DNA of 64,000 nucleotides, taken from positions 6,355 through 70,354 of the forward strand of contig CAKZVC010000073.1 in NCBI GenBank assembly GCA_937922235.1, given 5' to 3'. Every line of letters starts with the position of its first letter. Position 1 is the stretch's first letter. Below, piece after piece: positions 35,450 to 39,547 of this stretch. Source of the stretch: an uncultured Acidimicrobiales bacterium. Its GTDB lineage: Bacteria; Actinomycetota; Acidimicrobiia; Acidimicrobiales; SHLQ01. The position numbers and the translations under genes were made by a program. The notes under the pieces are model-generated. The model saw only the letters and a program-made list of their open reading frames with translations, was not told where the DNA came from and made no database searches.

Positions 35450-36841
35450 ATGAGCCTGGAGACGAAGGGAGAACCAATGACGGATACGAGTCGTTCCTCA
35501 GGTGAGCACAATTCACACTTCGCAGACTTCTTCGGTTGGTACTTCTCTCCCGTAGGACTGGCGTTCGGATTTGGCCTTGCGGTCGCAGGATTCCTGACCG
35601 CAATCGATCGGCCACGCCTTGCGCTGCTCCTTCTCATCATCGACGTCGCAGTGGTCGTTCCCTGGAAGTTCATGCGCCACCAAAACGAACTTCGACGATT
35701 CGCAGCCGACACGTCCGCCGATACTGCAGCGCTTCGAACGCGGCTCGAAGAAACCCTCCCCCGTAGGCGGATTCAAGCATTGCTCAAGACCGAGCGCAGG
35801 CGCGACCGCGAGAAGCTGGACAGAATCCGCGCTCGAATTGCGCGTACCGAAGAACGACAGCGTGCAGACAGTCAGACGGCCGCCGAATTCCGAGCTAAGG
35901 CCGGGCCGCGAATTGGCGACCAAGGCAACGAAATGTCCGACCAACGCAAGAGGCTCGAGCACCAAGCTCGCCAGATCGAGCACCAAGCTCGCCAGATCGA
36001 ACAGCAGGCCGAACAACTCCGACTCCAAAAGGCGCAACTCGACGCGCAGCCCAAGGAACGTCAAAGGGCCCATGAGTGGACCGTCAGTGCGCTGGAACGG
36101 ACGTCACGTCGGCACGACGCGACAAGCGCGCAACTCCGACAGCTCGAAGAATCCATGCGACTCCTGCAACGGAACCAATCAGAGGTCACCTCCGAGCTTC
36201 AGTTCCAGCTCGGCATTGGCCGCCAGTATGTTTTTGGCCTCGGCACAGGGCGAAGCGGCACAGTGTCTCTTTCTCGCCTCCTGAAGGCACAGGCATCCTC
36301 GTCTGTGACCCACGAGGTGCGTCCACTTCTGCCTTGGAAGTACGACCAGGGCTTGATCGATGAGCGTTTGGACTACCTTGCTCAACGACCCACACGCATG
36401 GTTGGCGATGTCGCGTACTACTACCTGCCGTACGTCCGCTACATCGCCGAGCGATTGCCTGAGGCGCGGTTTGTCTGCATGCGACGCAACCGGGAAATGG
36501 TCATCGATAGCCAGATGCGAAAGACGCAGAACTACAACCTTTGGGCCGATCACGACGGTTCTAGGTGGGACCTCAACGAGATTTGGGATCCCACCATGCC
36601 TTCGTATGAGGCAATGGAAAAGGAGGACGCAATCGCCCGATACTGGGACGAATACAACGAGGAGACGCTACAGCTGTCCGAAGAGTTGGGGGACCGGTTC
36701 CGAATCTTCGACCTCGAACAGACCTTTCATGACGCTGAGGCAGTCGGTGTCCTTCTCGATCACGTTGGCATTGCTCGGGAGCACCAGAATGTCGTGGTGG
36801 ACATCCACGAGAACGCGCTACCTCAAGCGCCTCCAGCGTAG
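35450..36841 (+). CDS. Membrane-anchored coiled-coil protein with C-terminal sulfotransferase-like domain
   Basis: 463 aa. Two hydrophobic helices (FFGWYFSPVGLAFGFGLAVAGFL; LALLLLIIDVAVVV), then ~170 aa of Q/E/R-rich heptad-like sequence, then FGLGTGRSGTVSLSRLL (PSB-loop-like) and CMRRNREMVIDS. Confidence 0.55.
   Translation: MSLETKGEPMTDTSRSSGEHNSHFADFFGWYFSPVGLAFGFGLAVAGFLTAIDRPRLALLLLIIDVAVVVPWKFMRHQNELRRFAADTSADTAALRTRLEETLPRRRIQALLKTERRRDREKLDRIRARIARTEERQRADSQTAAEFRAKAGPRIGDQGNEMSDQRKRLEHQARQIEHQARQIEQQAEQLRLQKAQLDAQPKERQRAHEWTVSALERTSRRHDATSAQLRQLEESMRLLQRNQSEVTSELQFQLGIGRQYVFGLGTGRSGTVSLSRLLKAQASSSVTHEVRPLLPWKYDQGLIDERLDYLAQRPTRMVGDVAYYYLPYVRYIAERLPEARFVCMRRNREMVIDSQMRKTQNYNLWADHDGSRWDLNEIWDPTMPSYEAMEKEDAIARYWDEYNEETLQLSEELGDRFRIFDLEQTFHDAEAVGVLLDHVGIAREHQNVVVDIHENALPQAPPA
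35957..35998 (+). repeat. Perfect 21-bp in-frame tandem duplication
   Basis: GAGCACCAAGCTCGCCAGATC x2 encodes EHQARQI-EHQARQI inside the coiled-coil region. Confidence 0.9.
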
Positions 36842-36849
36842 AGACCGAC

Positions 36850-38379
36850 TTACGCCCCCGCCGAGGCTGCGTGCGCTGCCAGCCGCTCCAAGAGTTCCTT
36901 TCGGATCGGCGCGATCTTTCCTTCGAGGTGGCGAAAGCTCTCAAGGTCGAGTGCGAAACCACGGCGGATTCCAGCGTCCAACAATCCGCTCACGGACAAG
37001 TGGCGATCGACCACCGACCAGAATGTGGGGTCGAGCAATTGAATAGACTCTTGCACTTGCTCATCCCCATCGGTCATGTACGACAAACCAAGGAATTGCA
37101 GAATTCGCTCCGCTGTTGCAAGCCGATGCTGATACGTGCCGATCGCCTCACTAAAGACATACGGTGTGCCAGGAACAATGTCCGCCGCTGCAAGCGGCGC
37201 GTGAACCCGCTCGGACAGCCGGTCTGCTTCAGCTAGATGCGAACTTGGCATGGTCCGCACCATGCTGGCCTTCTTCTGCCGGTACACGGCAAGCACACTC
37301 GGCGTGGCCTCGAAGACATAGCCGTGCCGCATGATTCGCTGCCAGAGGTCCCAGTCTTCTGCCCCCTGCCGCATCGATTCGTCGAACCCTCCGAAGCGCT
37401 GCAACACGTCCGTGCGCATCAACGGTGCATGACAATTGAATGGACACCGGCCTGCGGCGGTCAGGTGATCGTGAAATCGCGTGCGGTTCCTTCGGTCGCT
37501 TGGTGTCGCATCATCAAATCGAACGTGTTCCTCGACCTGATCGATTGCTGAGAACACGCCAACGACCTCGGTACGGTCGCACCATCCGAGCAAGTGACGG
37601 GTCCGTTCGGCCAAGTTCTCGCGAAAGAAGAAGTCGTCAGAATCGAGAAAGCCGACGAAGGGTGTGTCAACTGCGCCCAGGCCCGTGTTGCGTGCCGCGC
37701 TCAGACCACGATTGTCGCCGTGTTCAATAACCGAGAATCGTTCGTCGTCAGCGCATGCTGAACGGATCACCGCAACCGAATCGTCGGTCGAGCCGTCGTC
37801 GACGATGATTGCCCGGAACCGAGTGAAGGACTGAGACTGCAGCGATGAGATTGTGTCGGTCACAAAGGTTGCATCGTTCCAACACGGCACGACGATCGAC
37901 ACAACATCCTGCTCCGGCAACCCGGTGACGAGCTGAAACAGCGACATCACCTGCCCGGTCGTAACCTCCGGCGATTCGGGCGCTACAGATTGCTGAGGCT
38001 TGTTGGTTGATGCCTTTGTGCCGCGAGCGGGCTGCGGGGCCGACAGTCGGGCGACATTGGCCACTGTTGTACGCAACAGCTTTTTCGTTTCTTCGATCTC
38101 GTTGGTCACAACGACAGCGCGATCATCACCATGCTGCAGCCGAGTTTCTGCCGCGGCGATACGCTCAAGAATCGTGGCTTCTCTTCTCTCGAGCTCGCCC
38201 ACTCGGTTCGCTGTCAACGCAAACAACGCCATCCAGATGGCTATCGCAAGTACCACAGCGATGTCCGACAGTGCGCCGTCGATGTTGAGCGCTATGAGTA
38301 CAAGCACTATCGAAACAAGAACCGCAATCAGCTTTCGCCCCGAATAGAAACTGATGATCAGCTCGAGCCTGTTCTTCAT
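36850..38379 (-). CDS. Membrane-anchored GT2 glycosyltransferase (2 TM + coiled coil + GT-A)
   Basis: 509 aa. N-terminal helices LIAVLVSIVLVLIAL / IAVVLAIAIWMALFAL, coiled segment ELERREATILERIAAAETRLQ, then VSIVVPCWND..., IIVDDGSTDDS, GLSAARNTG, FLDSDDFF. Confidence 0.75.
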   Translation of the reverse strand: MKNRLELIISFYSGRKLIAVLVSIVLVLIALNIDGALSDIAVVLAIAIWMALFALTANRVGELERREATILERIAAAETRLQHGDDRAVVVTNEIEETKKLLRTTVANVARLSAPQPARGTKASTNKPQQSVAPESPEVTTGQVMSLFQLVTGLPEQDVVSIVVPCWNDATFVTDTISSLQSQSFTRFRAIIVDDGSTDDSVAVIRSACADDERFSVIEHGDNRGLSAARNTGLGAVDTPFVGFLDSDDFFFRENLAERTRHLLGWCDRTEVVGVFSAIDQVEEHVRFDDATPSDRRNRTRFHDHLTAAGRCPFNCHAPLMRTDVLQRFGGFDESMRQGAEDWDLWQRIMRHGYVFEATPSVLAVYRQKKASMVRTMPSSHLAEADRLSERVHAPLAAADIVPGTPYVFSEAIGTYQHRLATAERILQFLGLSYMTDGDEQVQESIQLLDPTFWSVVDRHLSVSGLLDAGIRRGFALDLESFRHLEGKIAPIRKELLERLAAHAASAGA

Positions 38380-38416
38380 ACGTCAGCGACATTTCCGACG
38401 GAACATCTACGTTCGC

Positions 38417-39547
38417 TCAGGACTCGCGAAACCGCAAACGGCGCAGTTGCTCGTCTGATGTAACCGACTCCTGCATGAGGCCATAACCATCGTGCCATTC
38501 CGCGAGGAGAGCCGTGTCGCTCGACTGATCCGTTGAGCCAAGAAGCACGACAGATTTCGAGGTGAGGTCGTCGTAAAGCAACGCGAGTGCGGGCTTCTTC
38601 GACACGTCGTCATCGTCACGATGCCCGAGGTAGAGCACCTCGATCGGCGTCTCGAAGAGACCTTCGGGAAGTTCATACCACCGCTGTTCATTGCCCTCGA
38701 TGCGGAAATCGACGATTGGCGCCTCGACGACCTTGGCGACCTTGTCAAGTCCGCGCTCCTCGAGCGCTTTACGCGTATTTCGTGCGTAGCCAATGTCATG
38801 CTCTAGCGAAATGACGTGTCCAAAGCCGTTCTTTGCCGCTGCGAGAGCGGCAATTACCGTCGAAGAGGTATTGCCCACAACCACGACAGTTGAGGGTTCC
38901 TGCTCGGTGATCACGCGGCACAACTCGAGTGCCGCATTGGGCGACAATCCTTCAGCGTTGATCGGGGGCAACGGCGTGTGAGGCGCCAGCAGCGCATACA
39001 ACGAGCTCATTGCCTGGATCTCTTCGGAGATCTTGCTCCGCTGATCGGAGCTCACTGCCGATTCGTGCAGTGTCTGAACCCGGTCCTCCAGCGAAGCCAA
39101 GTGGAAGAAGGCGTTGACCTGGCGTTCATCGAGCGCCCCAAGCTGCTCTTCGTACCCGCCATTGAACTCGGCCTGCGATGTTTCAACGCTGTCTTGCCAG
39201 GTTCGCACCTCTTCGCCGGTCGGAACAGCAGAGAGGCTGGCATTCATCCGCCGAAGCTGCTTGGAGAGCGACTCAATCTCGCTGCGAAGCTCGTGGGATT
39301 GCTGCTGCTGCGCTGCTGTGAGTTGGTGGACTGCGAGCTCCCAGTCGCGACGCTCCCGCATCAGCTTGTGCGGGACAATCACTCCGACCCACGCAAGAGT
39401 CACGAGGAGGGCCGCCGTGACCAGCCCGAGCGCCGCAAAAACCAGCACAAGTCCGATGCATGCCAAGCTCACAATTCCAGCCGGAGTCCGGTACCACCTG
39501 GCGAATTGTCGAATCATCGAAGCAAACTTGCGAGCCATAGCCATCAT
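38417..39547 (-). CDS. Membrane-anchored class-I methyltransferase-fold-like protein (2 TM + coiled coil + alpha/beta domain)
   Basis: ATG at 39547 forms an ATGA overlap with the upstream dual-GT2 gene. Helices IVSLACIGLVLVFAALGLV / AALLVTLAWVGVIV, coiled region HQLTAAQQQQSHELRSEIESLSKQLRR, then VVVVGNTSSTVIAALAAA...VISLEHD. The functional call is tentative. Confidence 0.5.
   Translation of the reverse strand: MMAMARKFASMIRQFARWYRTPAGIVSLACIGLVLVFAALGLVTAALLVTLAWVGVIVPHKLMRERRDWELAVHQLTAAQQQQSHELRSEIESLSKQLRRMNASLSAVPTGEEVRTWQDSVETSQAEFNGGYEEQLGALDERQVNAFFHLASLEDRVQTLHESAVSSDQRSKISEEIQAMSSLYALLAPHTPLPPINAEGLSPNAALELCRVITEQEPSTVVVVGNTSSTVIAALAAAKNGFGHVISLEHDIGYARNTRKALEERGLDKVAKVVEAPIVDFRIEGNEQRWYELPEGLFETPIEVLYLGHRDDDDVSKKPALALLYDDLTSKSVVLLGSTDQSSDTALLAEWHDGYGLMQESVTSDEQLRRLRFRES

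Follow-up and report, generated by a model that had tools for sequence, protein, structure and literature searches.

A candidate hairpin-anchored ruler or terminator among glycan-tailoring enzymes of an uncultured Acidimicrobiales bacterium

To our knowledge, coiled-coil rulers are the only well-understood form of length measurement for bacterial polysaccharides of the ATP-binding cassette (ABC) transporter type, and the worked examples are all Gram-negative O antigens, with anchoring by an amphipathic helix or through the polymerase. [quoted passage not shown] In WbdD, the coiled coil's length determines the length of the chain (PMC11231755; PMC3482155). We analyzed a 64,000-nucleotide stretch of DNA from an uncultured Acidimicrobiales bacterium (assembly GCA_937922235.1, contig CAKZVC010000073.1, positions 6,355 to 70,354 of the forward strand; hereafter the window), in which three adjacent genes encode a sulfotransferase-like protein (A), a family 2 glycosyltransferase (GT2; B) and a methyltransferase-like protein (C). 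By analogy with the systems above, we put at roughly 45% the probability that this locus encodes a variant of the WbdD/WbbB-type ruler/terminator, held by an N-terminal hairpin anchor and possibly with sulfate replacing methyl.

A sequence-only reading of the region had proposed that all three proteins begin with two closely spaced hydrophobic helices and reach their enzymatic domain only after a heptad-like stalk. The three open reading frames (ORFs) are indeed present (Table 1), with A and B converging and C upstream of B, the latter two on the minus strand. The likelier start of A is the ATG at 35477, which has an AAGGGAG Shine-Dalgarno sequence and agrees with a 454-residue gene call (P0001; here and below, P numbers denote proteins and L numbers loci recovered as relatives). 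The helix pairs were found as described: Kyte-Doolittle windows place hydrophobic segments at residues 32-53 and 54-76 of A, 11-60 of B and 20-63 of C, and AlphaFold models give helices at 34-51 and 55-102 in A (mean predicted local distance difference test score (pLDDT), 78) and at 22-39 and 43-106 in C (mean pLDDT, 90.8). The turn between the helices is 2-3 residues long in both models and is acidic in B (NIDGALSD), and the second membrane helix of A and of C continues directly into the stalk. Overall, the layout of hairpin, spacer and enzyme is real, conserved and more than chance, with an N-terminal hydrophobic helix pair in none of 23 other window proteins checked and with hairpins that are kept without gaps in homologous proteins otherwise ~30-50% identical.

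The same reading had held the N-termini to be alike in architecture only, which is correct for B against A or C (no sequence similarity between their hairpins was detected) and incorrect for A against C. Aligned gaplessly, the hairpins of A and C share 16 of 50 residues (BLASTP E = 5e-6), and a hidden Markov model (HMM) built from 16 C-like hairpins matched A and its two full-length homologues only (E from 1e-7 to 4e-9 at Z = 1e6). In a set of 17 A-like and C-like proteins, five residues at constant spacing never vary, namely W, Y, P and G in WYxxPxG and P in PxK (W18, Y19, P22, G24 and P59 in C numbering), and this WY module is fixed in length (WYxxPxG-34 aa-PxK). An HMM of the B hairpin matched B-like GT2s only. 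Judging from these alignments, the A and C hairpins are homologous and that of B is a separate conserved module. The WY hairpin also appears to be portable, because it occurs on two proteins made up of hairpin and coiled coil only (191 aa, L013 9709-10284; 144 aa, L015 3586-4020) and at the C-terminus of a Methyltransf_21 (FkbM-type) protein (L015 1077-2342). As a genome query, a six-sequence subset of WY hairpins returned two loci only, one of which, a weak 19-residue match in L008 from a Mycobacterium metagenome-assembled genome (MAG), was disregarded.

Lysine and arginine residues cluster before helix 1 and after helix 2 in B and C, with none in the turn, and A has four in its C-terminal flank and two in the turn. 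The donors 3'-phosphoadenosine-5'-phosphosulfate (PAPS), S-adenosylmethionine (SAM) and nucleotide sugars are cytoplasmic. Because of the Lys/Arg-rich flanks and the short turn, and in agreement with these cytoplasmic donors, we infer that both termini of A, B and C lie in the cytoplasm and that their catalytic domains face it.

The stalk of A is rich in arginine (18%), glutamine (13%) and glutamate (11%) and scores 0.88 for heptad periodicity against a shuffle mean of 0.49, a value reached by none of 300 shuffles; the score is a home-made one (hydrophobic residues counted at a/d and offset against those at other positions, proline and glycine being penalized) and not that of COILS or DeepCoil. 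AlphaFold places interruptions at P103, residues 151-161 and P201. Within this stalk, a 21-bp tandem duplication that encodes one heptad is a fresh trace of heptad-wise length change; no copy-number variation of the repeat was seen among three metagenome contigs, which are 100% identical. In C, the stalk helices span residues 43-106, 111-162 and 167-187, with a moderate heptad signal by shuffle comparison. In 12 of 15 C-like proteins, 36, 43 or 50 residues separate the proline at the hairpin exit from the PT motif, a count that is inflated by kinship and that still requires at least two independent 7-residue steps. From this spacing, the first stalk segment of C-like proteins changes length in whole heptads, and the second spans 74-210 residues without heptad quantization. 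Matches of the stalks to Pfam DUF4381, SlyX and SMC-type families were weak and composition-driven and were ignored.

In B, heptad periodicity stands out only marginally (its score is reached by 4% and 1% of shuffles), and the first 112 residues of six B-like GT2s (B and five homologues) align without gaps, including the ETRLGHGEDR motif. The spacer is followed by a linker of ~40 residues rich in proline, glutamine, serine and threonine. The proposed heptad-like stalks are therefore borne out for A and C, by their long helices and heptad scores, and B has a short spacer that is only marginally heptad-like. An extended coiled coil before a distal domain, a feature of the ruler class, is likewise present in A and C and marginal in B.

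The catalytic domain of A was modeled with high confidence (pLDDT >90 over residues 257-455), and its top 32 Foldseek matches in the PDB were all sulfotransferases (E from 2e-5), including TPST as the best match, a schistosome SULT, SgdX2, CurM-ST and Cpz8. GLGTGRSG, R346-x7-S354 and H288-E289 are invariant in 10 of 10 A homologues, and we take G265-T-G-R-S-G270, R346 and S354 to be the 5'-phosphosulfate loop and the 3'-phosphate motif (Arg-x7-Ser). In this model, A has a sulfotransferase fold with intact putative PAPS-binding motifs. The match to Pfam Sulfotransfer_3 (PF13469) reached 19.5 bits, below the cut-off of 27, a PDB profile search gave TPST1 a value of only E = 0.015, and just ten homologues were found among 5.8 billion proteins. 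A is thus a member of a divergent and rare subfamily of PAPS-dependent sulfotransferases, and, apart from the window, A-like proteins with both hairpin and stalk were found in L001 and a single short contig only.

B matches the GT2 family (PF00535) at E = 6.6e-27 with a visible LDSDD (DxD motif), features by which it is a standard GT2 of the GT-A fold. Six of the ten B-like homologues read keep the hairpin (P0013, P0015, P0016, P0017, P0020 and P0027), the other four do not have it, and in P0020 the stalk extends to ~130 aa. P0006 (L019 948-2798) joins an A-type sulfotransferase domain directly to a B-type GT2 in a single chain that has no hairpins. The fusion gene lies just upstream of purN, at the same chromosomal position as A and B, and provides a Rosetta-stone link for functional coupling of the two. 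An MptE/Maf-like domain (PF01973) is found at the C-terminus of many B-like GT2s (L007 9470-12253, P0019, P0021, P0022 and P0033-P0036); together with a CMP-sugar synthetase-like gene in the window (19535-20227), these fusions hint that related systems include a step with nonulosonic or ulosonic acid.

The methyltransferase fold that had been suggested for C was recovered by Foldseek as a COMT-like fold (Rv0187, BcOMT and COMT; E ~2e-8), and its catalytic motifs proved degenerate. E.GSG.ST has become V.GNT.ST, GWA has become EG, DGPP has become GHR and DD..R..E has become GS..Q..D. Conserved family positions are kept at 20 of 35 in C and at 16 of 35 in its orthologue P0135 (L001 6383-7468), compared with at least 29 of 35 in other full-length members (n = 56). 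Pfam Methyltransf_24 matched nine of ten C relatives scanned, and C itself had no Pfam methyltransferase match. Because motif I, which serves SAM binding, and other family motifs have been lost, C is probably a catalytically inactive pseudoenzyme. Each of the two loci with a degenerate C, the window and L001, encodes a stalked A-type sulfotransferase as well. A word-index homology search returned C alone, and an exhaustive search of cluster representatives was required to reveal the family (2,914 representatives at E <= 0.001), whose public annotation is only "class I SAM-dependent methyltransferase / YrrM".

Association with a multi-module glycosyltransferase polymerase, a further feature of the ruler class, is seen as gene adjacency. 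The start codon of C overlaps the stop codon of an upstream gene for a 754-residue dual-GT2 protein as ATGA, and in seven loci (the window, L001, L007, L009, L011/L012, L013 and L015) a C-like gene comes immediately after a dual-GT2 gene, with the methyltransferase fused to the dual-GT2 in L009. Elsewhere in the family, long-stalk members in Ruania alba and L017 adjoin multi-glycosyltransferase proteins of ~950-1000 aa. The transporter components Wzm and Wzt are also present in L017, and in L014 Wzm and a Wzt with a Wzt_C cap-binding module accompany the C-like protein P0140 (stalk, 259 aa), which is common to L014 and L015. In characterized systems, the Wzt_C module binds the chain-terminating cap (PMC11231755). 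We favor a ruler reading of the C-type proteins because they adjoin a polymerase-like gene, have stalks of variable length with heptad-quantized steps, and include one relative beside a cap-reading transporter as well as long-stalk members beside multi-glycosyltransferase proteins.

Under this ruler reading, A, B and C would be cytoplasm-facing tailoring enzymes of a polyprenol-linked cell-envelope glycan, with the dual-GT2 protein as its likely polymerase. A tight two-helix hairpin would anchor each enzyme with both termini inside the cell, and the helical spacer, a coiled coil in A and C, would set the distance of the catalytic domain from the membrane surface. By analogy with WbdD and WbbB, the spacer would act as a ruler, such that the distal enzyme modifies or caps only those chain ends long enough to reach it. 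In relatives with an intact Methyltransf_24 domain, the C-type protein is a candidate for adding a methyl cap. In the window and L001, sulfation would probably have replaced methylation, with the WY-hairpin sulfotransferase A as the active stalked modifier and the degenerate C kept as a non-catalytic scaffold or stalk partner.

Several observations weigh against a ruler. The proline and glycine breaks split the A stalk into four helices, which could fold back as a bundle rather than extend, and the spacer of B is of fixed length with no clear coiled coil. A single terminator suffices per ruler system, yet three enzymes are tethered here, and the pairing of an A-like gene with a degenerate C was seen in two lineages only. 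Neither Wzm nor Wzt was found within the 64-kb window by tblastn or Pfam. No sequence relation to WbdD was detected: searched against all PDB sequences, the C-family profile had COMT-like O-methyltransferases among the matches listed, and WbdD was absent from the best 60 of 182 matches (E up to 1), so that the likeness to WbdD and WbbB, drawn by analogy, is functional and architectural only. Literature searches found no paper on sulfate as a chain terminator and nothing relevant on hairpin-anchored terminators.

Some of these points would be expected if the proteins were simply tethered, an explanation that we consider rather unlikely while giving it real weight. The hairpins would then localize the enzymes at a lipid-linked substrate, the helices would oligomerize or space them with no measuring, and A would sulfate internal residues. 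An N-terminal hydrophobic hairpin occurs in most of the best 150 C-family members, and linker length among the 125 that were measurable is bimodal: 73 (~58%) have a linker of just 24-60 aa and ~34% one of 100-290 aa. An anchor is evidently useful without a stalk, and one short-linker member, P0192, lies outside any glycan locus. It is harder to see, on this account, why the stalks of close relatives should vary over 74-210 aa while the hairpin and first segment stay in heptad register, or why coiled coils should recur in other arrangements among the A-domain homologues (N-terminal and without a membrane helix in P0004 and P0007, C-terminal in P0005). The fixed spacer of B and the missing Wzm/Wzt fit simple tethering, as does the presence, in both the window and L001, of another Sulfotransfer_3 enzyme, a soluble one, which suggests general sulfation; the strict adjacency to a polymerase-like gene and the Wzt_C module of a relative do not.

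A hetero-oligomeric scaffold, in which WY modules pair in the membrane and/or through their coiled coils to form a platform for the enzymes and the polymerase, with C as adaptor, strikes us as improbable as a full explanation. Several proteins with the same type of hairpin per locus (two in the window, L001 and L013; three in L015) are consistent with a shared membrane platform, and retention of anchor and stalk by C despite its lost catalytic motifs, together with the sulfotransferase-GT2 fusion P0006, points the same way. However, the hairpin of B is unrelated to the WY type, the recovered DNA of L007, L009 and L011 holds one WY protein only, and a scaffold could coexist with a ruler, or with plain tethering, and so excludes neither. 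We likewise regard as doubtful a more elaborate proposal, in which the WY hairpin and coiled coil form an undescribed, portable ruler of Actinomycetota that is mounted on various capping enzymes (Methyltransf_24, sulfotransferase and Methyltransf_21) or occurs as a partner with no catalytic domain, with A and the pseudo-methyltransferase C as a hetero-oligomeric ruler beside the polymerase and chain length set by a terminal sulfate cap.

Finally, it is very improbable that the N-terminal extensions are untranslated, or are a signal or single-pass anchor that places the enzymes outside the cell: A has alternative starts (35450 or 35477), C has been called at 376, 366 and 421 aa and its hydrophobic run is unbroken over ~40 residues, but wrong start codons are excluded because every candidate start of A, B and C precedes the hydrophobic region and the N-termini are conserved as protein among homologues (gapless, with the W, Y, P, G and P invariant), and the two modeled helices with their short turn and the cytoplasmic PAPS, SAM and nucleotide sugars speak against an outward-facing anchor.

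Table 1 Features of the A, B and C genes, their products and the adjoining glycosyltransferase genes, in window coordinates
Feature	Coordinates	Strand	Basis
Gene A	35450..36841	+	463 aa ORF; WY hairpin, long coiled-coil stalk and sulfotransferase domain
A residues 27-76, WY-type hairpin (FFGWYFSPVG...VVPWKFMR)	35528..35677	+	Hydropathy, AlphaFold, homology to C hairpin
A residues 77-256, R/Q/E-rich helical stalk	35678..36217	+	AlphaFold helices to 102, 105-150, 162-198 and 201-253; heptad score
Perfect 21-bp tandem duplication in A stalk, 2.2 copies, one heptad (IEHQARQ)	35955..36000	+	Tandem Repeats Finder, 100% matches
A residues 257-463, PAPS-type sulfotransferase domain	36218..36841	+	AlphaFold, Foldseek, conserved motifs
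Gene B	36850..38379	-	509 aa ORF; hairpin, short helical spacer, flexible linker, GT2, C-terminal helical domain
B residues 59-112, fixed-length helical spacer, ETRL(G/Q)HG(E/D)DR motif	38044..38205	-	Alignment; marginal heptad signal
B residues 11-58, B-type hairpin (FYSGRKLIAV...LFALTANR)	38206..38349	-	Hydropathy, alignment with five homologues, HMM
Gene C	38417..39547	-	376 aa ORF; WY hairpin, two-segment coiled-coil stalk, degenerate Methyltransf_24/COMT-like domain
C residues 188-376, methyltransferase fold with lost motifs	38417..38986	-	Foldseek; motif comparison
C residues 64-187, stalk; segment 1 ends at PTxEE..WQ motif, segment 2 length-variable	38987..39358	-	AlphaFold
C residues 18-63, WY-type hairpin (WYRTPAG...IVPHKLMR)	39359..39496	-	Hydropathy, AlphaFold, homology
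Dual-GT2 (two GT-A modules, Glyco_transf_7C), candidate polymerase, translationally coupled to C	39544..41808	-	Pfam; ATGA overlap
GT-C (PMT_2) membrane glycosyltransferase	41889..43532	-	Pfam; transmembrane profile

The three genes belong to an island between an Amidase_3 gene and purN-purH, in the order DegT, GT-C (PMT_2), dual-GT2, C, B and A. The same flanks with variable content were found in L001, L007, L009, L011/L012, L013 and L019, often with a DEAD-box helicase gene beyond, and one related metagenomic locus is from an uncultured Acidimicrobiales MAG. The segment at ~35450-45964 of the window resembles an O-antigen locus as a variable island between fixed flanks. At its edge, between the DEAD-box helicase gene and purH, lies an IS110-family transposase (31801-32910). 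The helicase itself (29970-31463) has a ~90-aa C-terminal tail rich in glycine, arginine, lysine and serine, and the Amidase_3 protein (44915-45964) has a long poly-Thr/Ser linker after a signal-like N-terminus.

Near the island are a second DegT gene, a GNAT acetyltransferase, a GtrB-like GT2, further glycosyltransferases and the soluble sulfotransferase. The GtrB-like GT2 (49250..50575) has two C-terminal membrane helices, and a gap of GtrA size (48007..48400) corresponds in position to a called GtrA gene in L005 and L001. With the GT-C, these probably make up a three-component set for extracytoplasmic glycosylation. Given the overlap of the GT2 ORF at 49250 with the DegT gene of the opposite strand, the true start of this GT2 is probably near residue 113. 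The two WecE-like DegT aminotransferases and the GNAT acetyltransferase suggest a 4-acetamido-4,6-dideoxyhexose side group.

A second glycan block (19535-24824 and 24828-29881) contains the CMP-sugar synthetase-like gene, a 2-hydroxyacid dehydrogenase, two GT2s (one of 526 aa), a short-chain dehydrogenase, a GT4, a soluble Sulfotransfer_3 enzyme and three unknowns (396, 207 and 242 aa). The two dehydrogenases share 56-60% identity with genes that neighbor Wzm/Wzt in L014. At 745-6373, an RTX (HemolysinCabind) repeat protein is encoded with HlyD-like and FtsX-like genes, and in L014 two RTX proteins lie directly beside the C-like gene and Wzm/Wzt. A type-I ABC exporter pair at 9345-12778 was considered as a transporter for the A/B/C system and, being of a different class, was not assigned.

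A hairpin-anchored ruler, if real, would extend the principle to Gram-positive-type envelopes, and both the anchor type and a sulfate cap as terminator chemistry would be new to the literature. Sulfated bacterial glycans are rare and of biotechnological interest. The wider reach is suggested by the C family, with its ~2,900 representatives, largely hairpin-anchored and long-stalked in about 40% of the members measured. Its hairpin-stalk signature in glycan loci of Actinomycetota would offer a simple way to find terminators in unannotated genomes, and a motif-dead C whose anchor and stalk persist, next to a sulfotransferase on the same type of anchor, would be a natural case of an enzyme replaced and a scaffold retained.

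Among known systems, Golgi type II enzymes share with A, B and C the order of anchor, spacer and globular catalytic domain, and TPST, the best structural match of A, is itself a stem-tethered Golgi enzyme. These enzymes are single-pass, with a cytoplasmic N-terminus, a lumenal catalytic domain and a stem that is usually flexible and not a coiled coil. The hairpins of A, B and C are instead predicted to return the chain to the cytoplasmic side, and the earlier analogy to Golgi stems breaks down on topology, given two helices, a turn of 2-8 residues, Lys/Arg flanks and cytoplasmic cofactors. Subunit b of the F-type ATP synthase resembles A and C in that an anchor leads directly into a long helical stalk, a purely architectural likeness: subunit b has a single membrane helix and no catalytic domain, and the weak profile matches of the stalk region (E ~0.01) are composition-driven and no sign of homology. 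The COMT-like cation-dependent O-methyltransferases Rv0187, BcOMT and COMT share the fold of C and similarity to its family profile. Enzymes of this family-3/COMT-like type are soluble, and membrane-bound COMT is single-pass; by contrast, the C family adds a hairpin, and C is without the glycine-rich SAM loop.

The closest parallels are the rulers themselves. In WbbB (K. pneumoniae O12), ORF6-O7 and ORF7-O4 (GT137), a coiled coil lies between the terminating and the polymerizing GT2 modules, and these modules are variably split or fused, much as in the P0006 fusion and the methyltransferase-dual-GT2 fusion of L009. Their caps are Kdo or methyl-phosphate, and none is described with a transmembrane hairpin anchor. 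WbdD (E. coli O9a and K. pneumoniae O3 and O5) is like C in combining a methyltransferase-type enzyme, an extended coiled coil and a membrane anchor, and it pairs with the multi-glycosyltransferase polymerase WbdA in a polyprenol-linked pathway at the cytoplasmic face, as may A, B and C with the dual-GT2 protein. WbdD is a kinase and methyltransferase, whereas the enzymes here are a COMT-like Methyltransf_24 protein (motif-dead in the window) and a sulfotransferase, in an actinobacterial host and without Wzm/Wzt in the window. The polarity is also reversed: WbdD has N-terminal catalytic domains and a C-terminal amphipathic-helix anchor, and A and C place an N-terminal integral hairpin before the stalk.

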